From Candidatus Aenigmatarchaeota archaeon (lineage in GTDB: Archaea; Aenigmatarchaeota; Aenigmatarchaeia; QMZP01; QMZT01), in NCBI GenBank assembly GCA_041489155.1, contig JBGPQP010000003.1:23297-87296 (forward strand): a DNA stretch of 64,000 bases, in the 5' to 3' direction. The notes under the pieces were generated by a model. It saw nothing but the letters and a program-made list of their open reading frames with translations. It was not told the DNA's origin and did no database searches. This document shows, one piece after another, positions 8,437 to 56,224 of this stretch (the stretch's first letter is position 1; every line of letters starts with the position of its first letter). A program made the translations under genes and the position numbers.

Positions 8437-10101
8437 ATGAAACTAAAAGACATCGTCCTCCAGTACGCACTGCAGAACGCAGTTTTCTACAAGGGCAAGG
8501 CGAACGCTTCGGCGGTTCTTGGTAAGGTGATTTCGCACAGCCCGGAAGCGAGGACCAGGGTGAATGAAGTGCGCATGATGGTGGAGCAGGCAGTAAATGA
8601 GATAAACCACCTTTCCCTTGCTGAACAGGCAAAGAAACTCGAGGATATCGCTCCCGAACTGCTCGAGAAGCAGGAGAAGAAGCAGGAGGGCCTTTCCGGG
8701 CTTGAAGGAGCGGAAGAAGGGAAAGTCACGACAAGGTTCGCGCCTTCGCCGACCGGGCCCCTGTCGATAGGCCAGTTCATGCGCGCGGTTTTTCTCAGCC
8801 ATTATTACGCAAGGAGATACAAAGGCAAATTCATCCTTCGCATAGAGGACACTGACGCGAAGAAGATCGAAGCGAATGCCTACGAATGGCTGAAGGAGGA
8901 TTTGGCAAGAATGGGCATAAAATGGGATTCGCTGGTCCTCCAGTCTGACAGGTTGCATGATTATTACAAGCACGCGAAACACCTCCTTGAAAAGGAAAGG
9001 GCTTACGTGTGCACATGCCCGACCGAGACATTCAAGGAATACAAGCTTTCGAAAGCCGACTGCCCCTGCCGGGTGAATTCAAAAGAGAAAAACTTGGAAC
9101 TGTGGGAGGCGATGCTCGCAGGCGGCATGGAGGACGGCTCGGCTGTATTGAGGCTGAAAAACAGCATGGCTGACCCGAACCCTGTACTGCGCGACCCGCC
9201 TCTTCTGAGGGTCAACAAGACCCCCCACCCCCTGAAGGGGACGAAGTACGCGGTCTGGCCTTTGTACAATTTTTCCTGCGCTGTCGACGACCATGAACTC
9301 GGAGTGACGCATGTCTTCCGCGGCAAGGAGCACGAGCACAACACAGCGGTGCAGAAGATGGTATCTGACATTTTCGGCTGGGGCTTCCCGGATGTCGTTA
9401 ACTTCGGCATGATACGCTTCCCCGGCGGCGCGGTCCACACCAGGGACATCAAGGTGATGATAGCGAATGGCGAGGTCTCGGGCTGGGACGACCCGAAGCT
9501 CCCGACGGTCCGCGCCATGCTGAGGCGCGGCTTCCATCCGGAAGCGATAAAGAACCTCGCCATGCAGTGCGGCCTCAGCAAGAACGACATCGAGCTGAGT
9601 TGGGAAAATCTCGACACGCAGAACAGGAAATTCATTGATCCCATCGCCAATAGGTACATGACCGTGATCGACCCTGTCAAGCTCCTGATAGAAGTTGCGC
9701 CTGATAAACGCGAGGTTTTCGAAGTGCTCCATCCGGATTTCCCGGAGCGCGGCAAGAAGAAAATTCCTGTAGACCCGAAAAATATTTACATCTCCGGGAA
9801 GGACAGTGCGGAGCTTAAAGGCAAGGTCGTCCGCCTGAAAGGCTATTGCAACGTTTCGCTTTCAAGGAAAACGAAGTGCGTGGGAGACGAAATCGTCCGC
9901 GACATGCACAAGATACAATGGGTGAGCGAGCCGCACGTCAAGGTGAAGGTCGTCAACGCTGACGGCGTTTCCGAAGGCATAGGCGAGCCGGAGATGTCGA
10001 ATCTGAAAGTCGGCGAAGTCATACAGATGGAACGCATCGGGTTCGGACGCGTGGACGCGAACGAGAACAAGCAAATAATCATATACTTCGCACACAAGTG
10101 A
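8437..10101 (+). CDS. gltX: Glutamyl-tRNA synthetase, archaeal type, with a non-canonical HIGH motif
   Basis: The track start at 8431 is TTG; the first ATG is at 8437. Archaeal GluRS architecture is present (RFAPSPTGPL..., ILRIEDTD, GWDDPKLPTVRAMLRRG, C-terminal ...ERIGFGRVD...IIYFAHK). The HIGH position reads SIGQ; see findings. Confidence 0.85.
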   Translation: MKLKDIVLQYALQNAVFYKGKANASAVLGKVISHSPEARTRVNEVRMMVEQAVNEINHLSLAEQAKKLEDIAPELLEKQEKKQEGLSGLEGAEEGKVTTRFAPSPTGPLSIGQFMRAVFLSHYYARRYKGKFILRIEDTDAKKIEANAYEWLKEDLARMGIKWDSLVLQSDRLHDYYKHAKHLLEKERAYVCTCPTETFKEYKLSKADCPCRVNSKEKNLELWEAMLAGGMEDGSAVLRLKNSMADPNPVLRDPPLLRVNKTPHPLKGTKYAVWPLYNFSCAVDDHELGVTHVFRGKEHEHNTAVQKMVSDIFGWGFPDVVNFGMIRFPGGAVHTRDIKVMIANGEVSGWDDPKLPTVRAMLRRGFHPEAIKNLAMQCGLSKNDIELSWENLDTQNRKFIDPIANRYMTVIDPVKLLIEVAPDKREVFEVLHPDFPERGKKKIPVDPKNIYISGKDSAELKGKVVRLKGYCNVSLSRKTKCVGDEIVRDMHKIQWVSEPHVKVKVVNADGVSEGIGEPEMSNLKVGEVIQMERIGFGRVDANENKQIIIYFAHK

Positions 10102-10120
10102 GCCTTTTAGAAAAAGGCTC
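10100..10120 (+). terminator. Stem-loop overlapping the gltX stop codon
   Basis: gagcctttt (10100-10108) pairs perfectly with aaaaggctc (10112-10120), giving a 9-bp stem and a 3-nt loop. An AT-rich tract follows. Confidence 0.3.
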
Positions 10121-10317
10121 AATCGAAAAACTAACTTAAAACTTTAGCAGAAAACTATTTCTTGCAAAATAAACACATTAAATTGGAATTTTGTTCCAAA
10201 TAAATTATATTTTAGGTATTTTATACAATTATTTACCTAATTATTTGAATAAAATGTTAAAGATATGAAAATATGCATAAATAGAGAAATCTTTATTGCC
10301 ATCTACAAAAACCGGCA

Positions 10318-11151
10318 TCAGCCGAGCAGGCCCAGAATATCGAACAAGCTCATGCCCTTCGTCTGCAGCGTCACGAATTCCGCATCCTTGACTCCTGCAA
10401 GTTCTTTGGCCTTCTCTTTTGCGTCTTTTATCGTGCCTGTCGAGTCTATCAGACCCAGGTCGACAGCGTCCTTTCCGAGGAATATGTCTCCTGTGGATAT
10501 CTCTTCTACCTGCGCTGGCGTAAGCTTTCTCTTCTCGCTCACGTCGCTGATGAAATATTTGAATATTTCATTGGTTATGTATTCAAGCTTGCCTCTCTCG
10601 CTTTCGGTCAGGTTGCGGAACGGCGAGCCCATGTCCTTCATTGCGCCTGACGTTATCTGCTCATAGGTGATGCCGTACTTCTCGAAGAGCTTCGAGAACT
10701 CGAGATACGATGCGGTCACGCCCACTGATCCCGTAAGCGTGAGCGGGTCGGCCATTATGTGGTCGCAAGAGGAGGCGATCCAGTAAGCGCCGCTCGCCGC
10801 GACGTCGCCCATCCAGCAGAGCGTCGGCTTATTCATGTCGGCAACAGCGAAGGCGATTTCCCTCGACGCGACGACAGAGCCGCCCGGAGAATCGATTTCA
10901 AACATCACTGCCTTTATGCTCGGGTCGTCTTCGGCCTTCTTTATCAGGTAAAACGCTTCCTCCGGCGTGAACGTATCGCTGAGCAGCTGCTGCCCGGAAG
11001 CGATGACGCCCTGCACCCTGATTATGGCAATCTTGTTGCCGAAAGGCAGTTCAGTCGCCATGAAGCCAGCAGCGATAATTATGACAACGATTCCTATGCC
11101 GACACCGATTCCCAGCAGAAACTTCCAGCCTTCCGTCTTGGATTTTTTCAT
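10318..11151 (-). CDS. sppA: Signal peptide peptidase SppA (36K type)
   Basis: 277 aa with an N-terminal TM segment. Contains the ClpP/crotonase-like S49 motif GDVAASGAYWIASSCD and GSVGVTASY. Confidence 0.8.
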   Translation of the reverse strand: MKKSKTEGWKFLLGIGVGIGIVVIIIAAGFMATELPFGNKIAIIRVQGVIASGQQLLSDTFTPEEAFYLIKKAEDDPSIKAVMFEIDSPGGSVVASREIAFAVADMNKPTLCWMGDVAASGAYWIASSCDHIMADPLTLTGSVGVTASYLEFSKLFEKYGITYEQITSGAMKDMGSPFRNLTESERGKLEYITNEIFKYFISDVSEKRKLTPAQVEEISTGDIFLGKDAVDLGLIDSTGTIKDAKEKAKELAGVKDAEFVTLQTKGMSLFDILGLLG

Positions 11152-11199
11152 GATAATCAGATATGTAATCCTTTGCTTAAAAAATGCGGCAATCCTGGC

Positions 11200-12246
11200 T
11201 TAACCCACGTCCACGCCGTTTACAATAATCTTCTGGACTTTCGTGACCTTGCCTATCACGCTGTGCGCGATGTTGTGTTTCTTAAGGACGTCAGCGATAC
11301 GCTCGTAATCCTCCGGCTCCTCGCCTGGCGCGACGATTATGAAGCCGATTCCCATGTTGAACGTCCGGAACATCTCCCTGTCGCTAAGCAGGCCGTAATG
11401 CTGTATAAGTTTGAACACCGGCTTTGTCGGTTTGGGGAGCTTGATGTCAAAGCCCACGCCGGCTTTGCTGCCTATACGTGCGAGTTTCGAGAACGCGCCG
11501 CCCGTGATGTGGGCGAGGCCATGAACCTTGCAGTTCTGCAGGATCTCGAGGACCGGTTTGACGTAAATCCTCGTCGGCTTGAGCAGCTCTTCTCCGACAG
11601 AGCAGTCAAGCTCCTTGACGTATGTGCCTATGTCATGCCTCTGCAGCAGAACTTTCCTTGCGAGCGAGAGGCCGTTCGAATGCACGCCTGAGCTCTCGAG
11701 GCCTATGACTATGTCTCCTGGTATCATCTTTTCGCCGGTTATAATCCTGTCCTTGTAGACCATGCCTAGCGACATCGCGGCCAGGTCGAAGCCCTTTACG
11801 ACGTCCGGCATTATCGCTGTTTCGCCACCGACGACAGCTACGCCAGCTTCTTTCGCCGCTTTCGCGAGGCCTTTTGCTATCTCGCTTATCATTTTCTCAT
11901 CGGTTTTCTCCAGTGCGAGATAATCAACCATGGAAACAGGTTCAGCGCCCATGCAGATGAGGTCGTTCACGTTCATCGCCACGCAGTCGAAGCCGATGGT
12001 GTCGTACTTCCTCATGGCCTGGGCGATAAGCGTTTTCGTCCCGACGCCGTCGACATGTATCGCAAGCGTCTTGCCGCCGCCGATGTCGATGAGCCCTGCA
12101 TAATGCCCTATCTCGCTCAAAACCCTCCCGAACTTGTCCAAGCGCTGTGAAAAGGTCTGCTTGAAAATCTCGGCCATCTCACCGTGCGAGTGCTTGACCT
12201 TCTCTATGTCGACGCCCGCCTTCTCGTAAGTGAACTCGTCAGTCAT
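11200..12246 (-). CDS. purM: Phosphoribosylformylglycinamidine cyclo-ligase (AIR synthetase)
   Basis: 348 aa. PurM-type N-terminus (YEKAGVDIEK...), DGVGTK motif and AIR-synthase C-terminal domain. Confidence 0.92.
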   Translation of the reverse strand: MTDEFTYEKAGVDIEKVKHSHGEMAEIFKQTFSQRLDKFGRVLSEIGHYAGLIDIGGGKTLAIHVDGVGTKTLIAQAMRKYDTIGFDCVAMNVNDLICMGAEPVSMVDYLALEKTDEKMISEIAKGLAKAAKEAGVAVVGGETAIMPDVVKGFDLAAMSLGMVYKDRIITGEKMIPGDIVIGLESSGVHSNGLSLARKVLLQRHDIGTYVKELDCSVGEELLKPTRIYVKPVLEILQNCKVHGLAHITGGAFSKLARIGSKAGVGFDIKLPKPTKPVFKLIQHYGLLSDREMFRTFNMGIGFIIVAPGEEPEDYERIADVLKKHNIAHSVIGKVTKVQKIIVNGVDVG

Positions 12247-47278: not shown

Positions 47279-47562
47279 ATAAATCTATATTTGGTTGCAC
47301 CTATATAAATCTTTCTCTCTGTAACTGTTAACTGTTATAATATTTGTTGAATATTCAGCTTCTACGGCCGCGAAAGCACGAGTCTAACCTTTATAAAGGT
47401 AAGTCCCATATTAATCAACTAAAAGCGAAAAACGGCGTTAGGGATCATGCGCCTCTTGGCGGTGAATGCTAATTCTGTTTTTTGTCTATTGAAACGTGTA
47501 AACCGCAAGTAGACAACGTTTACTTCAATAAAAGTTTACATGCTTTAGAAGGAGTGATAGAG

Positions 47563-48849
47563 ATGTCATTTGAAAAATTAGGAATAGAGCCGAGGATACT
47601 TGATATTCTCAGGAAGGCGGGTTTTGAAAAACCGATGCCCATACAAAGGGAGTGCATACCTCTCGTAAAACAGGGGAAGGACGTCATAGCCCAGTCGGAA
47701 ACAGGGTCGGGCAAGACGCTCGCTTTCGCGATACCCATAATGGAGAAAATCGAGCAGGGCAAAGGCATACAGGCCCTTGTCGTCACGCCGACTAGGGAAC
47801 TTGCGAACCAGATAACAAAGGAGTTTCTCAAGCTGACGGCGTACAAGATGGCCAACATAACGAGCGTTTACGGAGGTGTGTCCATCGAACCCCAGATAAG
47901 TTCGCTTAGGACGGCGGATGTCGTCGTCGGCACGCCGGGCAGGATACTGGACCATCTAGAGAGAAGGACCATAAATCTCTCAAACGTGAAGTACCTTGTC
48001 ATCGACGAAGCTGACCGCATGCTCGACATGGGCTTCATAGACGACGTGGAGAGGATCGTAAGCTACACGCCGAGAAGCCGCCAGACCATGCTGTTCAGCG
48101 CGACCATACCCGGGCCAGTGTATGGCATAAGCCAGCGCTACATGAAGAATCCAATAGCGATAGAGACTGAAAGGCATGTCAAGCCGGAGTTTCTCCGCCA
48201 GATATATTATGACGTCATGGAGAACGAGAAGTTCTCTGTCCTTGTCCATCTTATACAACAGGAAAAGCCGAAGCTCGCGATGATTTTCTGCGGCAAAAGA
48301 TCGACAGCGGACGCAGTCGCGAGAAACCTGCAGATGCAGGGCATAAACGCGAGGGTGATACACGGCGGGCTCGAGCAGAACAAGCGCGAGCGCATAATAA
48401 GCGACACGCATGCTGGCAGCGTTCAGGTGCTTGTTGCAACGGACGTCGCTTCGCGCGGCCTCGACATAAAGGGAGTGACGCACGTCTTCAACTATGACGT
48501 TCCAGCGAAGAAGGACGATTACATCCACAGAATAGGCAGGACCGCGCGCGCCGGCAAGTCTGGCATCGCGATAACCATCCTTTCAGACTCGGACTACGAC
48601 AACTTCCGCAGGATACTCAGGGACAACATGGGCCTCAACGTCGAGGAAGGCGCAAAAGAAGACTTCAGGCGCATCCCGTTCAATCCGCGCGCAGGCCGCG
48701 AGTACAGAGGCGATGGTTATCATCAGGGAAGCCATTACGGAGGCGGGGGACAACATGGCCATCGTCATGCCCGTGACAGCCACAGAAGCTACGGACATCG
48801 CAGCAGTGAGCATGAGCATCGCAGCAGCTGGAGATCCCGCAGCCGTTAG
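47563..48849 (+). CDS. DEAD-box RNA helicase with a His/Arg/Gly/Ser-rich tail
   Basis: Track ORF starts at 47482. I prefer the ATG at 47563 (MSFEKLGIEPRIL...), preceded by GGAG. Motifs Q, I (SETGSGKT), II (DEAD), III (SAT) and VI (HRIGRTARAG) are present. The tail reads GYHQGSHYGGGGQHGHRHARDSHRSYGHRSSEHEHRSSWRSRSR. Confidence 0.9.
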   Translation: MSFEKLGIEPRILDILRKAGFEKPMPIQRECIPLVKQGKDVIAQSETGSGKTLAFAIPIMEKIEQGKGIQALVVTPTRELANQITKEFLKLTAYKMANITSVYGGVSIEPQISSLRTADVVVGTPGRILDHLERRTINLSNVKYLVIDEADRMLDMGFIDDVERIVSYTPRSRQTMLFSATIPGPVYGISQRYMKNPIAIETERHVKPEFLRQIYYDVMENEKFSVLVHLIQQEKPKLAMIFCGKRSTADAVARNLQMQGINARVIHGGLEQNKRERIISDTHAGSVQVLVATDVASRGLDIKGVTHVFNYDVPAKKDDYIHRIGRTARAGKSGIAITILSDSDYDNFRRILRDNMGLNVEEGAKEDFRRIPFNPRAGREYRGDGYHQGSHYGGGGQHGHRHARDSHRSYGHRSSEHEHRSSWRSRSR

Positions 48850-49598
48850 GTTTTTTTGAAAAAGATTATTCTGGCGGGTTTCCCGCCTTTTTTTATAATC
48901 ACTACGTCGCCTTTCTCTAGCCTGCATGCCTGCTCTTCCTGGCCGTCAGAGCAGACTTCGCCTTCCTTGCTCTTGCAGGTTATCGTAACCTTGCCCTTGG
49001 CCATCGTTATCGCGCCTTTTCTGAGCCTTCCTTGGTAAGGAGCGACTGCCACAACGCCAAACCTGCCCGGCGTGTCGAAAGGCTTCGCGCCAGCCGCCTT
49101 TGCGTAGGCGTAGGAGCCGCTTGGCGTGTAAACTATTATGCCTGAATTCCTTTCCCTCGTTTTCCTCCCGTCTATCGCCAGCTCCGCTTCCATCAGCCTT
49201 CTCACGTATATCGGTGAGACCAGCACCTCGTTTATGGACTGGAAGGGCATCTTCGTGTTGCTTATCACGGTTTCCAGCCTGGTGAACTCGCGGATGAAAT
49301 AGTCCTTCCCTTCCCTGCCGCCGAACAGCTTCCGCGCCTTATTTACGAAATCCCTGCCTGTCGCCGTCGAATAATGCCCGACCGACTTGCCGGGGTTTAT
49401 GCTGAACATGGGGCACTCGAGGAACGACTGGTGCTTCAGCATCGTACCATCGCCGCCGACCATTATGGCGAGGTCGCAGTCCTGCGGCTCGTCGAAGACG
49501 TATGCGATGCCATGCTCCCTGAGAATGGAACAGAGCTTGAGCACTATCTGCTCGCCGTATTCCCTTTTCCACGTTATGTAGACTTTCGAGAATTCCAT
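48846..49598 (-). CDS. nadK: NAD kinase
   Basis: 250 aa with the GGDGTML motif (AIMVGGDGTMLKH). Its stop overlaps the stop of the convergent helicase gene by 4 nt. Confidence 0.85.
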   Translation of the reverse strand: MEFSKVYITWKREYGEQIVLKLCSILREHGIAYVFDEPQDCDLAIMVGGDGTMLKHQSFLECPMFSINPGKSVGHYSTATGRDFVNKARKLFGGREGKDYFIREFTRLETVISNTKMPFQSINEVLVSPIYVRRLMEAELAIDGRKTRERNSGIIVYTPSGSYAYAKAAGAKPFDTPGRFGVVAVAPYQGRLRKGAITMAKGKVTITCKSKEGEVCSDGQEEQACRLEKGDVVIIKKGGKPARIIFFKKT

Positions 49599-49734
49599 GC
49601 TTTCGCCCGTCGTCCGCGCCAGATAAACTAATTTTGTCCGCGGTTCTATATATTCATTTTATAGAGTCCTGCCTTTGCCCCGGCTGCCGGCAAATTACCC
49701 AAAATTAAGTAAAATTAACCACTATTCGATGACA

Positions 49735-49760
49735 AAAATATTTATAAATATATAATATAA
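49735..49760 (+). promoter_or_regulatory. AT-rich TATA-like region upstream of the propeller array
   Basis: aaaatatttataaatatataatataa lies about 50-70 nt upstream of the ATG at 49808. A GAGGTG Shine-Dalgarno-like element sits 7 nt before that ATG. Confidence 0.3.
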
Positions 49761-49807
49761 TTAATTAGTAACGATTCGAAGATTTCAACTACCAGAGGTG
49801 TTTGTGG

Positions 49808-51184
49808 ATGGATTTCGGCTTTGAAGGCTTCGACTCCGGTTTCACCGGTTTTGACGTGGATGTAGAAGAGTTTCAGGTCAGCAAAAAGAAGAAATATGAC
49901 AGGATATGGAAAGTCGGTTTCGGCGGAAGCGTGTGTTCAAAACCCGTCATACTCAATGACGTAATATACTTCGGCTCCCTCGACCACAACGTTTATGCTA
50001 TTGATATCAAAACGGAAAAAGAGGTCTGGAGATTCAAGACCAACGGCATAATATTGGATTCTTCCCCGACGATACACAATGGTGTATTGTTTATAGGATG
50101 TTTTGGCGGAACCATTCATGCAATAAACATTCGGACAGGCAGGGAAGTGTGGAATTACAAGGCAGGAGGAGAGATAAACTGCAGGCCGCTTGTCTGGAAC
50201 GGCGCGGTTTATTTCACGTCGAAGGACGGTTTTCTTTACGCCGTATACGAAACGGGAGGGAAGGAAATCTGGCGCTTCCGGACAGGAGACGAAATGGTTT
50301 CATCTCCCACTGTCCACAAAGGCAAAATATTCATCGGTTCTTATGACGGCAATCTTTATTGCATCAAGGAGGATACAGGCAAGGAGCTGTGGAGATTCAG
50401 AACAGGGGCGGAGATAGAGAACGATGACCAGTTCCTCATACACGAAGACATCATCTACTTCGGAGGCTTTGACAATTTCCTTTATGCGGTTGATATCGAA
50501 ACCGGCAAGGAAATATGGAGGTTCAGGACCGGCAAGTATGGCAACAACAGCGTTCCAGTGATTCATAACGATGTTCTTTACCATGGAAGCAGGGACGGCA
50601 TTTTTTACGCGCTTTCGCTTGAAGGCAAGGAGATATGGAGGTTCAAGGCGGGAGCGGAGATAACGGACAAGGGCCCGCTCGTATACAGGGGCAGGATTCA
50701 CTTCGGGTGTGGCGACGGGAACGTGTATTGCTTGAGCACCGAAGGAGAGGAAATATGGCGTTACAAGACGGACGGAGGCGTGTACACTTCGATAGTCGAG
50801 CATGAAGGGGTCCTATACTTCGGCAGCTGGGACTGCCACCTGTATGCGCTGGACGCGGACACAGGCAGGGAAATTTGGAGGTTCACGACAAGCACGCTAA
50901 CAAAAGCCCCATTACCTCCTGCATACGAATGCTTCGAGATGGAAATCAAAAAGGAAACGCACATAGAAGAGGCCATGGGAGACAGCAGGTACAAGAAGAA
51001 AAGGGAAGAGACATCGTCCCTATCAGATTATCATATTACAAGCGAATACCACACGGAATCGGAGTACAAGCAGAAATCAGAGTACGATACGAACTGGGTC
51101 ATGTTTGAAGATGTCATGGAAGGAGAGGAATTATGTCTTTTGGATTCGAAGGTTTCGCATCCTCGGATTTTGAGACCGAGCTAG
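49808..51184 (+). CDS. PQQ-like 8-bladed beta-propeller protein, paralogue 1
   Basis: The track start at 49802 is TTG; I prefer the ATG at 49808 (MDFGFEGFDSGF...). Eight ~40-aa blades of the type VIYFGS.D..VYAID..TGKEVWRFKT. No signal peptide or TM segment. Confidence 0.8.
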   Translation: MDFGFEGFDSGFTGFDVDVEEFQVSKKKKYDRIWKVGFGGSVCSKPVILNDVIYFGSLDHNVYAIDIKTEKEVWRFKTNGIILDSSPTIHNGVLFIGCFGGTIHAINIRTGREVWNYKAGGEINCRPLVWNGAVYFTSKDGFLYAVYETGGKEIWRFRTGDEMVSSPTVHKGKIFIGSYDGNLYCIKEDTGKELWRFRTGAEIENDDQFLIHEDIIYFGGFDNFLYAVDIETGKEIWRFRTGKYGNNSVPVIHNDVLYHGSRDGIFYALSLEGKEIWRFKAGAEITDKGPLVYRGRIHFGCGDGNVYCLSTEGEEIWRYKTDGGVYTSIVEHEGVLYFGSWDCHLYALDADTGREIWRFTTSTLTKAPLPPAYECFEMEIKKETHIEEAMGDSRYKKKREETSSLSDYHITSEYHTESEYKQKSEYDTNWVMFEDVMEGEELCLLDSKVSHPRILRPS

Positions 51185-52488
51185 AGGATTTCAGCGTGAA
51201 GAGGATCGGCAAGTTCGACAGGATGTGGAAGATTACCGAAGGCGGCAGCATAGCCCATTCCATACTGCACGACGGCATGGTTTACTTCGGTTCTTGTGAC
51301 AGAAATGTTTACGCCGTTGATTGCAAGAGCGGCAAGGAGATATGGAGGTTCAAGACCGGAGGACCTGTAACAGCAATGCCCTTTTTTAAGGAAGGCGTGC
51401 TTTACATAGGCTCGCATGACGGCAAATTCTATGCGCTTGAAGCAAAGAGTGGAAAGGAGATGTGGAGATTCAACGCAGGCAGCGAGATATTTTCCGGTTC
51501 ATTCGTTCATGAGGGCATGATTTTCTTCGGCTGCAGGAGCGGTTATTTTTACGCGCTGAACACCGAAGGCGAAGAGCTCTGGAGGTTCAGGACGGGCAGC
51601 GAAATAGTCTTCAATCCCGTCGCCGCAAATGGAAAGGTTTTCGTGGGCTCGTTCGACAGGAACCTTTATTGCTTGGACTTCGAAAACGGCAAAGAACTCT
51701 GGAGGTTTAAGACAGGAGACATCGTGCACGCTGACATCATGCCGCTGGTTCTGGAAAATATGATTTACTTCGCTTCTTTTGACAGCTATCTGTACGCAGT
51801 CGACGTTACAAGCGGCAAGGAGATATGGAGGTTCAAGACAGGAAAATACGGAAATGCAGGAAGTCCCGTGTGTTACAGAGGAGTCATCTACCACGGTTCC
51901 AGAGACGGAATTCTTTATGTCCTGACTCTTGAAGGCAAAGAAATGTGGAGATTCAAGACGGGAGGCATGCTAGAATCTCCACCTCTAGTCAAGGATGCTT
52001 ATGTTTATCTGACTTCCGAGGACGGGAATGTTTACTGCCTAAATCTCGATGGGAAAGAGCTGTGGAGGTTCAAGGCCGGAGGAGCGATTTACACCTCGCC
52101 TAAATTCTACAAAAACGTTCTTTACATTGGCTCATGGGACTGCCATCTTTATGCGCTGAATCTCAGGGGGGAAGAAATCTGGAGATTCGCAACAAGCTCT
52201 CTCGTTCCAGCACAAATACCGCCGGCCCACGAGGCCTTCAAGATGGAGATATCAAAAACGTTTGAAAGCGATACCATTGAAGAAAAGGACAAATACAAGG
52301 CGAAGAAAGACGAGACAATCTCGCTTTCCGACTATCACGTCAAAAGTGAATATCACACGGAAAGCGAGTACAAGCAGAAGAGTGAATATGAAGCCAACTG
52401 GGTTATATTTGAAGGAGTTCTAGAAGGTGAACAGATATGGACTTCGGATTTGAAGATCTTGACACCGGCTTCTCGGCTTTCGACGTAG
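51133..52488 (+). CDS. PQQ-like 8-bladed beta-propeller protein, paralogue 2
   Basis: Starts MSFGFEGFASSDFETELEDF, with its own GGAGAGG 5 nt upstream. Eight blades. The start lies 52 nt inside paralogue 1, in another frame. Confidence 0.8.
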   Translation: MSFGFEGFASSDFETELEDFSVKRIGKFDRMWKITEGGSIAHSILHDGMVYFGSCDRNVYAVDCKSGKEIWRFKTGGPVTAMPFFKEGVLYIGSHDGKFYALEAKSGKEMWRFNAGSEIFSGSFVHEGMIFFGCRSGYFYALNTEGEELWRFRTGSEIVFNPVAANGKVFVGSFDRNLYCLDFENGKELWRFKTGDIVHADIMPLVLENMIYFASFDSYLYAVDVTSGKEIWRFKTGKYGNAGSPVCYRGVIYHGSRDGILYVLTLEGKEMWRFKTGGMLESPPLVKDAYVYLTSEDGNVYCLNLDGKELWRFKAGGAIYTSPKFYKNVLYIGSWDCHLYALNLRGEEIWRFATSSLVPAQIPPAHEAFKMEISKTFESDTIEEKDKYKAKKDETISLSDYHVKSEYHTESEYKQKSEYEANWVIFEGVLEGEQIWTSDLKILTPASRLST

Positions 52489-53819
52489 ACGTAGAGGAAG
52501 TCGTGGTGAAGAAGACGAAGACTTACGACAGGGTATGGAAGACAACCATGGGCGGGAGCATAGACAACAACCCGCTGATGCATGAAGGGATTATCTACTT
52601 TGGCGCGTGCGACGGCCAAGTCTATGCGGTTGATGCAGGAAGCGGCAAAGTCATCTGGACGTTCAGGACGAGCGACACCATAGTCGGCTCCTCGCCCGCG
52701 CTTTTCGGGAACTCGATAATCATAGGATCGTACGACGGGAACCTCTACAGGATAGATTTGGAAAAAAGGGATGCGGTCTGGGTTTTTAAAACCTCGGGCA
52801 AGATATTCAGCTCGCCGTTTGTATACGGGGAAAACGCCTATTTCGGCTCGATGGACGGTAACGTTTATGCGGTCAACTGCGAGGTCGGCAAGGAGACCTG
52901 GAGATTCAGGACGGGCGGGGAGATAGCGTCATCGCCGCTGGTTGAGAACGGAAAGGTGTACATCACATCTTACGACCATAACATGTATTGCTTGGATGCT
53001 GAAACAGGAAAGGAATTGTGGAGGTTCAGGACAGGGGACGAGATGATAAACAACATACCCTTCATAGTACACAGGGGAGTTCTCTATTTTGGCAGCCTAG
53101 ACAATTATCTTTACGCTGTTGACTGCAACACAGGCAAGGAGCTGTGGAGATTCAAAGCTGGCAAATACGGCATCGGAGGCAGCATGCCAGTCGTCCACAA
53201 AGATGTGCTTTACTTCGGTACAAGGGACGGGGACTTTTTTGCCCTCACTCTTAGAGGTAAGGAGCTCTGGCGCTTCCGCGCGGGCGAGCCGATAATCGGA
53301 CAGCAGCCAAGGATTTACAATGGCATGATAATTTTCGGATGCGAGGACGGCAACATTTATTTCCTTGATATCAAAGGCAAGGAAATAGGAAGATTCAAGA
53401 CAGGCGGAAGACTTTACGGAAAGTTCCTTTTGCATGAAGGCAAGATATACATCGGCAGCTGGGACTGTTATCTTTATTGCATAGATACTGAGAACAGGAA
53501 GGAAGTATGGAGATGCCCGACGTCGACAATGGTGCAGGCCTACATACCGCCGGCACACGCCTCGTTCAGCGTCGAGATAAAGAAGGGCGTGCATATAGAA
53601 GACGCTGTCAGCGAGGACAAATACAGGTCGAAAAAGAAGGAAGAAGTTGTTTCCCTTTCTGATTATCACGTGAAAAGCGAATATCATACGGAAAGCGAGT
53701 ACAAACAAAAATCAGAATACGATACTAACTGGGTTATGTTTGAAGATGTCACGGAAGGAGAGGAATTATGTCTTTTGGATTCGACACTTTTGAATCCGGT
53801 TTCTCGGATTTTGATGTAG
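52437..53819 (+). CDS. PQQ-like 8-bladed beta-propeller protein, paralogue 3
   Basis: Starts MDFGFEDLDTGFSAFDVDVEE, with AAGGTGA 6 nt upstream. Eight blades. Overlaps paralogue 2 by 52 nt. Confidence 0.8.
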   Translation: MDFGFEDLDTGFSAFDVDVEEVVVKKTKTYDRVWKTTMGGSIDNNPLMHEGIIYFGACDGQVYAVDAGSGKVIWTFRTSDTIVGSSPALFGNSIIIGSYDGNLYRIDLEKRDAVWVFKTSGKIFSSPFVYGENAYFGSMDGNVYAVNCEVGKETWRFRTGGEIASSPLVENGKVYITSYDHNMYCLDAETGKELWRFRTGDEMINNIPFIVHRGVLYFGSLDNYLYAVDCNTGKELWRFKAGKYGIGGSMPVVHKDVLYFGTRDGDFFALTLRGKELWRFRAGEPIIGQQPRIYNGMIIFGCEDGNIYFLDIKGKEIGRFKTGGRLYGKFLLHEGKIYIGSWDCYLYCIDTENRKEVWRCPTSTMVQAYIPPAHASFSVEIKKGVHIEDAVSEDKYRSKKKEEVVSLSDYHVKSEYHTESEYKQKSEYDTNWVMFEDVTEGEELCLLDSTLLNPVSRILM

Positions 53820-55132
53820 ACGTTGAAGAAGTGACGATGAGGAAGACCAAGAAGTTCGACCGCGTATTCCGCGTCGGCTTCGGCGGCAGCATAAACCAGA
53901 AGCCGCTTATTTTGGGCGATATCATCGTTTTCGGCTCCATGGACCATTACCTTTATGCGGTTAATCTGGAGACCGGCATGGAAGCATGGAGGATGAAGGC
54001 GAACGGCATCTTCATGGAATCGTCGCCCGTGACAGACGGCGAGACGGTTTTCATTGGCAGTTATGATTATTGCCTTTACGCAGTTGACCCCGAAGACGGC
54101 GGCATCAGATGGAGGTTCAGAACAGGAGGCGAAATCCTAGGCACGCCCGCACTGGACGAAAAGCATGTTTACATAGGTTCAAGGGATGGAAGCTTTTATT
54201 GTCTGGACAAAGAGTCGGGCAAAGAACTTTGGAGGTTCAGGACAGGAGACTGGGTTGTAGCGAGCGCATTTGTCGATAAGGGAAGGGTCTACATAGGCTC
54301 CTTTGATGGCAATTTCTACTGTCTCGACAAGCGCACAGGCAAGGAGATATGGCGCTTCAGGGCCGGTGCGGAGATATACGATGTCTACCCTGGTAATGTA
54401 ATGAATGGCAGAATTTTCGTTCCATGTTTTGACAACAACCTCTACTGCATCAATGCGGACAACGGCAAGGAAATATGGAGGTTCAGGGTCGGCAGATACG
54501 GCACTGCAACTGCGCCAGCCGTCTACAAAAACGTGCTTTACCAGGAATCAAGGGACGGCATCCTTTACGCCCTGACGCTTGATGGCAAGGAGATCTGGAG
54601 ATTCAAGACAGGCGGCCTCATAGGGATGCCTGTCATAAAAGAGGACAGGATCTATGTCGGCTCGGCTGACAAGAATCTTTACTGCGTAGATCTGCATGGA
54701 AAAGAGCTATGGAGATTCAGGACTGACGGAGATGTTTTCTGGTGCCCTGTGATAAAAGGCAACGTGATATACTTCACCTCTTGGGACTGCCACCTTTACG
54801 CCGTAGATTTGGAAACGCGCAAAGAGTTGTGGAGGTTTGCGACTTCCACGTTGTCGCAGGCCGAGTGGCCTCCTGCGTACGAAGGCTGGGAAGCAGAAAT
54901 AAAGAAGGGAATGCACATAGAGGACGCAATAACAGAGGAAAGATACAAGGCCAGGAAAAAGGAGAACGTGGTTTCACTCTCCGATTACCACGTTGCCAGC
55001 GAGTATCATATGGAATCTGAATATAAGCAAAAGTCTGATTACAGCACTAACTGGGCTATGTTCGAGGAAGACCTGATTACAGGGTTCATTCAGGCAGAGA
55101 GTATCAACATTCTGCAGAAATTTATGAAGTAA
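53768..55132 (+). CDS. PQQ-like 8-bladed beta-propeller protein, paralogue 4
   Basis: Starts MSFGFDTFESGFSDFDVDVEE, with GGAGAGG upstream. Eight blades. It is the only copy with a free C-terminus (...NWAMFEEDLITGFIQAESINILQKFMK). Confidence 0.8.
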   Translation: MSFGFDTFESGFSDFDVDVEEVTMRKTKKFDRVFRVGFGGSINQKPLILGDIIVFGSMDHYLYAVNLETGMEAWRMKANGIFMESSPVTDGETVFIGSYDYCLYAVDPEDGGIRWRFRTGGEILGTPALDEKHVYIGSRDGSFYCLDKESGKELWRFRTGDWVVASAFVDKGRVYIGSFDGNFYCLDKRTGKEIWRFRAGAEIYDVYPGNVMNGRIFVPCFDNNLYCINADNGKEIWRFRVGRYGTATAPAVYKNVLYQESRDGILYALTLDGKEIWRFKTGGLIGMPVIKEDRIYVGSADKNLYCVDLHGKELWRFRTDGDVFWCPVIKGNVIYFTSWDCHLYAVDLETRKELWRFATSTLSQAEWPPAYEGWEAEIKKGMHIEDAITEERYKARKKENVVSLSDYHVASEYHMESEYKQKSDYSTNWAMFEEDLITGFIQAESINILQKFMK

Positions 55133-55144
55133 AAAAGCCTGACC

Positions 55145-56224
55145 CTAATCGGCGACATGAGGCAGCAGGTTCGCTTTTTTCGTCAGCCACCATACAATTA
55201 AGGTTGCCACTATCGTACAAATAGCAAGAACCGGAATGTACCAGTAGACGTCGTCAGCAGTGAACTGGAACATGGGATTGCCGGCGATGGTCGCGATGGT
55301 GTTCGGGACCAGCAGCGCGGTGCCTATTATCGCAAGATACGCCGCCAGCAGCGCGAGGCGGTTGTTGAGAATCTGGAGCTGGTTATTGTATATTGATTGC
55401 AGCACTTCGAGGCCGCTGGCAAGGACCTCGCTCAGGTGCTCGGCAAGGCCGATGTGCGAATGCACCTCGCCGACCAGGCCGCTAAGCCGGTCAAGTATTT
55501 TGGAATCATCCGTGAGCAAATCAGGGTCGCCGTAGCGTATCGAGTTCAGCGCATCCACGGTTGACCACATCCCCCCGAGATAGACGATGAGCGCGTGCTT
55601 CATCTGGTGTATCTTGGGACCCAGAATCTGCCGCGGCGTTTTGGGATCCGAAAGTTCCTCGCTCATCTTGTCTCCCAACTCTTCTATCTCCCTCAGGTGG
55701 TCGAAGTTGCGCGAGTTATTTTCATCGATTATGCGAATCAGAAGCATCGTTATCTTGTCGTTCTGCAAAAGACCTTCAGGAAGCTTTCTCAGCAGGGTTT
55801 CAGCGTATCTTCTCACGCGGAAAAACCTTTTGGTTTCAATCGTGTGTATCGTGAAGATTACGTTCTGCTTTATGAAAATCAGGAGAGGATCTATGTCCAC
55901 TTCGAAGCCCTTGACTTTCAACGCGGGAAGCAGAATGCCGACCTCGTTGCCAAAATCCTCGTAGCCGCTTCGGGAGGATTTAATGATTTTCTTGGCAAGC
56001 TGCTCGGTAAAGCCCAGCGATGTTGCGACTTCAACGCTTTCAGTTTCAAAGTCGCTCACAACGTAATCTATCCACGCTACGGTCGCTTCTTTTATCAGCG
56101 GGCAAAAATCCTTTACGTTGTCCGACTCCTTGCACCTCGTCTCGCCGCTTTCGTAAAGCGCTGCGCAGAAGCCGCGGTTTTCAAAAACCGAATCCTTGTT
56201 TTCCCCTTCATTCGCGTTTTCCAT
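55145..56224 (-). CDS. corA: CorA-family divalent cation channel homologue with a non-canonical pore motif
   Basis: 359 aa. A cytoplasmic alpha/beta-plus-coiled-coil region is followed by two C-terminal TM helices. The YGMNF position reads AGNPMF. Confidence 0.7.
   Translation of the reverse strand: MENANEGENKDSVFENRGFCAALYESGETRCKESDNVKDFCPLIKEATVAWIDYVVSDFETESVEVATSLGFTEQLAKKIIKSSRSGYEDFGNEVGILLPALKVKGFEVDIDPLLIFIKQNVIFTIHTIETKRFFRVRRYAETLLRKLPEGLLQNDKITMLLIRIIDENNSRNFDHLREIEELGDKMSEELSDPKTPRQILGPKIHQMKHALIVYLGGMWSTVDALNSIRYGDPDLLTDDSKILDRLSGLVGEVHSHIGLAEHLSEVLASGLEVLQSIYNNQLQILNNRLALLAAYLAIIGTALLVPNTIATIAGNPMFQFTADDVYWYIPVLAICTIVATLIVWWLTKKANLLPHVAD

Follow-up and report, generated by a model that had tools for sequence, protein, structure and literature searches.

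An array of overlapping PQQ-like beta-propeller genes in Aenigmatarchaeota, with apparently dual-coded junctions

We analysed a 64,000-nucleotide (nt) stretch of DNA from a Candidatus Aenigmatarchaeota archaeon (contig JBGPQP010000003.1, positions 23,297 to 87,296 of the forward strand; the window, to which all coordinates refer unless a locus is named). It contains four consecutive + strand genes for beta-propeller proteins of the pyrroloquinoline quinone (PQQ)-like type, each of which overlaps the next. The genetic architecture is close to certain, and its junction is inherited across a clade of related archaea. We propose that the array is a four-cistron stretch with dual-coded junctions, the cistrons of which would be initiated independently and would encode a repertoire of binding modules. 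Taken as a whole, this combined explanation has about an even chance of being correct.

The gene array and its junctions across the clade

A sequence-only reading of the window had proposed four overlapping ORFs (open reading frames) on the + strand, and their coordinates were confirmed with the ORF list and the sequence (Table 1). The start-to-start spacings were 1325, 1304 and 1331 nt, as had been stated; all equal 2 modulo 3, which puts each gene in the -1 frame relative to the one before it, and the overlap is exactly 52 nt at 3/3 window junctions. The Shine-Dalgarno element and the ATG of each downstream gene are embedded in the 3' end of the preceding cistron. The same reading had placed a Shine-Dalgarno-like element 5-7 nt upstream of every ATG. 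Such an element is indeed present at each of them, but the spacing is 4-7 nt. The mechanical ORF of gene 1 opens at a TTG (49802); the start that lines up with the N-termini throughout the family is the ATG at 49808. The first genes of other arrays carry comparable GAGGTG/GGGTGA elements. Gene 4 encodes a head, a propeller and S-E-Y hexads as the others do, but has its own, non-overlapped tail (FEEDLITGFIQAESINILQKFMK, followed by the stop).

Relatives were sought by scanning one genome per species and searching six-frame ORFs with a hidden Markov model of the four window proteins. This led to 55 related loci, nearly all in metagenome-assembled genomes (MAGs) of Aenigmatarchaeota, and the family is restricted almost wholly to this group of DPANN archaea. 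The window protein had no exact counterpart on record in public assemblies. The staircase of overlaps recurred in these genomes as tandem arrays on one strand, the smallest with 2 and the largest with at least 11 genes (10 in L005, 11 in L006, at least nine in L012 and L016), and one MAG held at least 14 full copies across four contigs. We found 70 junctions with the layout of the window, i.e. with Shine-Dalgarno element and ATG inside the upstream ORF and the downstream gene in the -1 frame. Their overlaps ranged from 43 to 73 nt, all equal to 1 modulo 3, with a mode of 52 nt (42 cases). The Shine-Dalgarno element was 4-10 nt 5' of the ATG, and a GGAGG/GAAGGTGA element occupied the same position. 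The upstream stop was nearly always a TAG formed by an xTA codon (V, L or I) and a following codon that starts with G; this codon pair sits in the D-[VLI]-[DE]-[VLI]-E-[ED] motif (D-V-D-V-E-E) of the downstream protein. The distance between the VMFE motif of the upstream protein and the downstream ATG changed by multiples of three in all cases. Independent gene calls (JGI, ENA, Logan) contained similar overlaps of 52-67 nt. Arrays and junction layout have thus been kept across genomes, and the pattern is far beyond chance because the same overlap phase recurs at 70 junctions elsewhere.

The paralogues are old, as had been supposed. The four window proteins were 46-54% identical to each other, adjacent array genes had a median identity of 47.8%, and a hand count on the alignment agreed with the 41 identities in 78 residues reported earlier for the N-terminal stretches of genes 1 and 3. 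The window genes were closer to genes of other genomes (59-75% identity) than to their own neighbours. The closest relatives were L001 gene 1 and L013 gene 1 for gene 1 (67-68%), L012 gene 4 and L013 gene 4 for gene 2 (59%), L002 gene 2 and L004 gene 2 for gene 3 (73-75%, with L017 gene 3 also within 71-75%), and L013 gene 2 for gene 4 (74%). The order of paralogue types differed among genomes. The alternation of MD and MS at the N-termini had been taken as the sign of a duplicated two-gene unit. This is not supported, because the window genes are nearer to genes of other genomes and because gene order varies; moreover, the lowest pairwise identity is that between genes 2 and 4 (45.8%). The sole recent duplicate that we saw consisted of genes 3 and 4 of L016 (99.6% identity).

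A few family members are atypical in size, tail or origin. Short singleton paralogues (416-426 amino acids (aa); L020, L023-L031 and L041) were found in genomes that also hold arrays. They end with a penultimate Tyr (...SEYK, ...GEYR, ...SEYA), and some are AT-rich up to the ATG, which suggests leaderless transcripts. The tails of last-in-array genes were heterogeneous: those of L006, L011 and L018 are similar and Thr-rich (e.g. ...LTLMNSVLTTTTGTTTSF), and a different tail (FEEVLxLNPDxxQxxFxxF...) is common to several others, so that the tail of the last gene seems to follow array position rather than paralogue type. In L016 (7275-19322), three long junctions stand beside 11-nt and 1-nt ones, and a distinct longer tail is present (...FEGCMNIGVSGMFIPQNTF...). 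A 3.2-kb contig binned as a Thermotogae bacterium (L032, QNAP01000240.1) carries two family genes, most likely through mis-binning. The complete 1.05-Mb genome CP070801.1 apparently has only about 3 family copies. One of its members (L038:10017-11381) is split into two adjacent ORFs (10017-10595 and 10596-11381), which points to a pseudogene or else to an artefact of assembly or masking; the next gene has a run of N.

Coding and translation of the overlap

The head encoded by the downstream frame is also conserved in first-of-array and singleton genes, which are overlapped by no gene, indicating that this frame is selected. Selection on the upstream frame was assessed through downstream codon choice, since each wobble position of the downstream frame is at the same time the second position of an upstream codon. 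We used all 69 overlapped genes and a dereplicated set in which each 60%-identity cluster was represented once (n = 34). Ile3 was encoded by ATC in 18 of 20 cases (9 of 9 in the dereplicated set; background 0.22), ATA being the codon that would make a TAG in the upstream frame. Gly4 was GGA or GGG in 47 of 52 genes (GGA in 15 of 22 dereplicated genes; GGA background 0.32), giving D or G and not V or A upstream; this bias was absent in the non-overlapped first and single genes. TTT was used for Phe8 in 38/53 genes (16/25 dereplicated; background 0.27), which gives L and not S upstream, and TCC for Ser10 in 29/43 (13/22 dereplicated; background 0.18), which gives P. The bias persisted in the dereplicated set, with p values of 1e-6 to 6e-4. 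The residue at codon 10 varies (S, T or A), yet the codon was xCC in 32 of the 42 junctions of 52 nt, indicating that the upstream Pro is conserved. Codons 2, 5, 6 and 9 were at background. For comparison, the fraction of the top codon in conserved four- or six-fold degenerate columns of the gene body had a median of 0.41 and a 90th percentile of 0.56.

Synonymous recoding was used as a null model for the position of the upstream stop. It placed the stop before 43 nt in 25% and beyond 73 nt in 20% of the recodings (45% in all), and neither was observed among the 69. The upstream tail has the consensus E-E-[LI]-W-[TI]-S-[DG]-[SL]-[KR]-x-L-x-P-x-x-x-x-x-x-stop. The features of the upstream frame that are apparently selected are the absence of an early stop, D or G at +3, L at +7 and P at +9. 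We therefore consider it probable that the overlap is dual-coding and that the upstream tail is maintained and not merely tolerated; dual coding is preferred to neutral read-through because wobble choice is biased as selection on the upstream frame predicts.

Long same-strand overlaps are usually regarded as short-lived accidents or annotation errors. Long 'phase 2' co-directional overlaps are rare and normally shrink to -4 or -1 nt; as a rule they are depleted, since a single mutation suffices to reduce them to -4 nt (Huber et al. 2023, PMC10666635). The maintenance of the tail seen here agrees poorly with this rule. The junctions described here share with this class an upstream stop located inside the downstream ORF and the phase of the -4, -1, -7 and -10 overlaps. 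They differ from it by their length (43-73 nt), by being iterated up to 10 times per array, by their retention down to about 47% protein identity, and by the codon evidence for both frames. The iterated, conserved and apparently both-frame-selected long overlap is an unusual variant of prokaryotic overlap, and offers a clean natural system for dual coding and overlapping-cistron translation in archaea.

The reading frame of each preceding cistron continues across the DNA of the next head, in a register shifted by one base, and ends at the TAG formed by xTA-G. Each cistron would be initiated independently at its own Shine-Dalgarno element and ATG, from one transcript. Independent initiation is the simplest reading, and the likeness of the heads in first-of-array and singleton genes speaks for it. 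Coupling through termination-reinitiation was rejected, since it requires a distance between stop and start of about -8 to +6 nt (PMC10666635), and overlaps of 52 nt in the window and 43-73 nt at the 70 related junctions are too far. As to the transcript, the TATA-like box upstream of gene 1 is a candidate single archaeal promoter for the whole array. No such box was found within the array in a consensus scan of 49500-55400, and the 209-nt spacer 5' of gene 1 contains 37% GC (0.368) as compared with 48% (0.484) in the array. One promoter for the array is suggested by this single TATA-like box and the absence of spacers.

Protein architecture, candidate function and alternatives

All four proteins matched the Pfam families PF13570 (Beta-prop_ACSF4; 210-241 bits, gathering cut-off 133) and PF13360 (PQQ_2; 143-220 bits, gathering cut-off 27.6). 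An AlphaFold2 model based on a 111-sequence alignment had a mean predicted local distance difference test (pLDDT) score of 85.6, a predicted template modelling score of 0.78, and 32 blade strands. Model and Pfam matches together bore out the eight four-stranded blades proposed earlier. The pLDDT was above 90 for 338 residues and below 50 for residues 1-18 and 388-457. In the protein of gene 1, an acidic/aromatic, disordered head (1-19) is followed by the propeller and its clasp (about 20-385) and by a disordered tail (386-458). The clasp consists of two strands, residues 21-26 pairing with 376-381 in the model. The tail comprises, in this order, a basic patch, four S-[DE]-Y hexads, the VMFE motif and the out-of-frame tail. 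As had been noted, there was no signal peptide or membrane segment: the N-terminus is acidic, with a maximal Kyte-Doolittle 12-residue mean of at most 0.9 in the first 30 residues, no hydrophobic N-terminal region was present, and the maximal 19-residue mean was at most 1.34. Each protein contains 7-9 cysteines, two of which are near-invariant. The proteins are thus eight-bladed PQQ-like beta-propellers, predicted to be non-catalytic, without signal peptide.

Profile and Foldseek searches placed the superfamily and gave no confident match to a family of known function. The nearest structures were 3hxj, an archaeal structural-genomics PQQ-like propeller (E = 5e-110), and the designed proteins Cake, Scone and Bagel, which were built on such propellers and match the same profile, followed by BamB, YxaL and tetrathionate hydrolase. 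All named homologues were from Candidatus Aenigmarchaeota. No defence family of PADLOC-DB was matched by any of the four proteins at E values up to 0.01, and AfsK was rejected, its NCBIfam score being under the cut-off. The view that the family is uncharacterised therefore stands: no curated function cut-off was reached, there was no defence model, and no publication on the family was found in the literature on Aenigmarchaeota or DPANN. Fold and superfamily are known. There appears to be no earlier description of the subfamily, of its terminal motifs or of the way in which it has expanded in Aenigmatarchaeota.

With the archaeal PQQ-like propellers 3hxj, Cake, Scone and Bagel, the proteins share eight compact, regular blades of about 40 residues each and the absence of cofactor-binding insertions (Foldseek target-normalised TM-score of 0.9 to Cake8, Bagel8 and Scone). 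The present subfamily adds the acidic/aromatic disordered head, the two-strand clasp, the 70-residue disordered tail with S-[DE]-Y hexads, and the organization in overlapping tandem arrays. BamB is likewise an eight-bladed PQQ_2-type propeller and a non-catalytic scaffold (Foldseek probability 1.0, about 20% identity). An identity with BamB was rejected: scores were 161-240 bits for TIGR03300 (cut-off 285) and 108-125 bits for NF008351 (PRK11138; cut-off 423). In contrast with BamB, the proteins lack a lipoprotein signal, and the host is archaeal, as also indicated by a CDP-archaeol synthase (CarS) gene in the window, and has neither outer membrane nor BAM machinery. The name "BamB" given by JGI to genes of this family is wrong, an annotation carry-over, and the present finding corrects this public label. 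PQQ-dependent alcohol and methanol dehydrogenases show blade-level similarity (PF01011 repeat matches). Membership in this group, for which the full-length architecture of about 570-780 aa was taken as criterion, was also rejected, with 95-120 bits for TIGR03075 (cut-off 480) and 42-56 bits for TIGR03074 (cut-off 833). The propeller here has about 340 residues and lacks the PQQ/metal-pocket insertions of the 570-600-residue enzymes, and there is no signal peptide.

The terminal peptides, the conservation of which had been noted earlier, proved to be more conserved than the propeller. Over 111 homologues, residues 1-20 had an entropy of 1.13 bits and the S-[DE]-Y hexads one of 1.11 bits; variability was greatest in the innermost blade strand A (2.89 bits) and in two sets of loops, D-A and A-B (2.1-2.2 bits). 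The head (consensus M-D-F-G-F-E-G-F-x-S-G-F-S-D-F-D-V-D-V-E-E) is strongly acidic and Phe-rich, with a net charge of -6 to -8 and 4-6 aromatics per 22 residues. In the tail, a Lys-rich patch precedes the four hexads, in which Ser and Tyr are in register. Head and tail motifs were found on no other ORF in the 0.89 Mb sampled, and a generic targeting signal was rejected on this ground. An exhaustive search with a profile of the C-terminal tail retrieved only 56 representatives among 1.84 billion proteins, 55 of which were family members or their fragments; the exception was a low-complexity match in an unrelated 1809-aa protein. A word-index search with this tail alone gave two fragments only. 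The head motif D-F-G-F-E-G-F-D may resemble the C-terminus of the eukaryotic ribosomal stalk (D-M-G-F-G-L-F-D); no stalk proteins were found in the sequences searched.

These features suggest a tentative scheme in which the proteins would remain in the cytoplasm, as the absence of export signals would have it. The disordered head and the Tyr-periodic tail may act as short linear docking motifs, either for a common partner or for each other, and the variable inner strands and top loops may give each paralogue its own ligand. The family would then be a repertoire whose members, all of them binding modules with the same handles, are interchangeable. We favour a repertoire because conserved linear motifs occur together with a propeller surface that has diversified, with numerous old paralogues and with a copy number that varies; an adaptor function of this kind is, however, a tentative assignment. 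Eukaryotic substrate receptors (WD40 DCAF and F-box/WD40 proteins) likewise comprise many paralogues in which a conserved docking element is joined to a variable propeller. The conserved ends (1.1 bits) and variable inner strands and loops (2.1-2.9 bits) of the present family would be a functional analogy only: there is no homology, and the putative docking elements are disordered termini and not folded boxes. Whatever its role, the family is an investment that is hard to explain in genomes of only about 1 Mb, and a concrete candidate for cell biology peculiar to this DPANN lineage, the lifestyle of which is largely unknown.

A more specific version, to which we attach little likelihood, is a pairing code: the tail of one protein and the head of the next, written by the same 52 nt, would form a docked pair, or else the tail would engage the propeller of the neighbouring protein. 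If so, gene order would dictate subunit order in a heteropolymer and any mutation would alter both partners together, a new means of hard-wiring partner specificity and co-evolution into overlapping frames.

Several observations speak against the combined explanation or parts of it. The junctions are kin by descent, and dereplication restores the independence assumed by the binomial tests only partly. TCC for Ser10 was enriched also in the small number of genes without overlap (6/8), part of the codon signal could be mimicked by a constraint that acts on the RNA of the initiation region, and the 0/69 of the stop test was obtained in a class defined by an overlap of 40-80 nt. Other layouts exist: L016 combines a 1-nt overlap with four of 11 nt that are in the other frame, a single gap of about 80 nt interrupts each of three arrays, the distant relatives L035, L042, L043 and L045 are in tandem without overlap, and the 416-426-aa singletons end right after the S-E-Y hexads, without extra tail. 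The long overlap is therefore dispensable to the family. With respect to function, the AlphaFold2 model contained no docked conformation of either end, and the cytoplasmic location was deduced only from missing Sec/Tat-like features; DPANN archaea may move proteins otherwise. Finally, when neighbours within 6 kb were clustered for the 55 loci, no conserved non-housekeeping partner was found.

It is possible, though distinctly less probable than not, that the junction is a neutral accident, i.e. that one ancestral stop codon was lost and the resulting junction was copied by unequal crossing-over, leaving overlap and tail without function. Stop loss is the accepted route to long overlaps (PMC10666635), all long junctions have one phase and one Shine-Dalgarno/ATG/TAG layout, as from a single origin, and the tolerance of the other layouts just listed (L016, gaps of about 80 nt, the four distant relatives, tail-less singletons) and the heterogeneity of last-in-array tails would be expected. 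However, with paralogues about 47% identical, silent sites should be random, yet the wobble biases survive dereplication. Furthermore, no junction has an early stop though 25% of synonymous recodings give one, long overlaps of the same phase normally collapse to -4 or -1 nt, and the changes in the VMFE-ATG linker are all multiples of three at the 70 long junctions. An unlikely alternative, which follows the hetero-oligomeric assembly suggested in the sequence-only reading, concerns the products: four obligate subunits of a hetero-oligomer of fixed stoichiometry, joined by their terminal peptides. The paralogue types are old and retained among genomes, the termini are highly conserved, and co-directional overlapping genes are enriched for subunits of heteromeric complexes; this enrichment holds, however, for overlaps of -8 to +10 nt, where termination-reinitiation operates, and not for 52 nt (PMC10666635). 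Array size varies from 1 to at least 11, with at least 14 full copies in one MAG, order and content vary, and heads and tails are near-identical in all paralogues and so cannot alone specify partners. Because copy number varies and gene order is shuffled, a variable repertoire is favoured over a complex of fixed stoichiometry, and we infer that it fits better than a fixed four-subunit machine.

Quite unlikely, in our view, is that the propellers are variable host-interaction proteins of a DPANN symbiont, exported by a non-classical route with head and tail as the export signal. DPANN genomes often expand surface and adhesion proteins, including beta-propellers (PMC5498576; PMC10266531), conserved termini joined to a variable propeller would also suit a targeting signal with a variable effector, and copy number is highly variable among genomes. 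Yet none of about 138 family genes encodes a hydrophobic N-terminus, a membrane anchor or a known archaeal C-terminal sorting signal, and the proteins carry the 7-9 cysteines already mentioned, two of them near-invariant. The confinement of the motifs to this family within the 0.89 Mb is unexpected for a general export signal, and the arrays lie in core housekeeping synteny beside the genes for aRF1 and ribosomal proteins. Least probable of all, and very much so, is that programmed -1 frameshifting fuses the cistrons into multi-propeller polyproteins, which would make the staircase one recoded gene. The downstream genes are in the -1 frame with an overlap at the 3 window and 70 related junctions, and a Shine-Dalgarno-like element precedes the overlap; the dnaX frameshift site carries an internal element of this kind upstream. 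However, the aligned overlaps contained no conserved X XXY YYZ heptamer, and RNAalifold found no conserved hairpin or pseudoknot in 42 junctions (-30 to +75; consensus energy -0.03, mean single-sequence z -0.6). A canonical Shine-Dalgarno element and ATG are present at every junction, first-of-array and singleton genes, for which fusion is impossible, have the identical M-D-F-G-F head, and no natural two-propeller fusion was found among 120 listed homologues or 56 tail-profile matches.

Feature coordinates and neighbouring genes

Table 1. Position of the genes, junctions and candidate signals of the array in the window
Feature	Position	Strand	Remarks
TATA-like box TTTATAAA	49741..49748	+	sole TATA-like match in 49500-55400; consensus match only
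Shine-Dalgarno-like GAGGTG (gene 1)	49795..49800	+	7 nt 5' of gene 1 ATG
Gene 1	49808..51184	+	458 aa, propeller with disordered ends; TAG stop
Shine-Dalgarno-like GGAGAGG (gene 2)	51122..51128	+	within gene 1 codons for E-G-E; 4 nt spacing
Gene 2	51133..52488	+	451 aa, architecture of gene 1; TAG stop
Junction 1	51133..51184	+	gene 2 head MSFGFEGFASSDFETEL; gene 1 tail (L)CLLDSKVSHPRILRPS, then stop, in +1-offset frame; TAG formed by CTA-G (L-E)
Shine-Dalgarno-like AAGGTGA (gene 3)	52424..52430	+	6 nt 5' of ATG
Gene 3	52437..53819	+	460 aa, architecture of gene 1; TAG stop
Junction 2	52437..52488	+	gene 3 head MDFGFEDLDTGFSAFDV; gene 2 tail (I)WTSDLKILTPASRLST, then stop; TAG formed by GTA-G (V-D)
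Shine-Dalgarno-like GGAGAGG (gene 4)	53757..53763	+	4 nt spacing
Gene 4	53768..55132	+	454 aa, final gene of array; TAA stop
Junction 3	53768..53819	+	gene 4 head MSFGFDTFESGFSDFDV; gene 3 tail (L)CLLDSTLLNPVSRILM, then stop; TAG formed by GTA-G
T6 run	55175..55180	+	43 nt 3' of array; possible archaeal oligo-T terminator

The T6 run downstream of gene 4 is a weak terminator candidate, as runs of six T also occur within genes 1-3 (50601, 51382 and 53235). Two long antisense ORFs lie within the propeller genes (53097-53708 (-), 203 aa, and 50300-50803 (-), 167 aa). They have no support as genes and appear to be a side effect of the repetitive codons that make up the blades.

In the window, the array is flanked by the genes for NAD kinase and CorA. 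Many MAGs have FEN1, a KaiC-like ATPase and KsgA upstream of the array, and aRF1, PAP2 and ribosomal protein genes downstream. These housekeeping neighbours reflect conserved synteny and not a functional partner. The aRF1 gene is on the same strand in six loci, about 63-73 nt 3' of the array. In two loci (L057:14036-16774 and L058:8227-10965), aRF1 has 912 aa and contains an intein, as indicated by Intein_splicing and LAGLIDADG_3 matches between the eRF1 domains. Upstream of the array, the window also encodes a DEAD-box helicase (47482-48849, +), the last 60 or so residues of which are a low-complexity tail with many Gly, His, Arg and Ser (...GDGYHQGSHYGGGGQHGHRHARDSHRSYGHRSSEHEHRSSWRSRSR).

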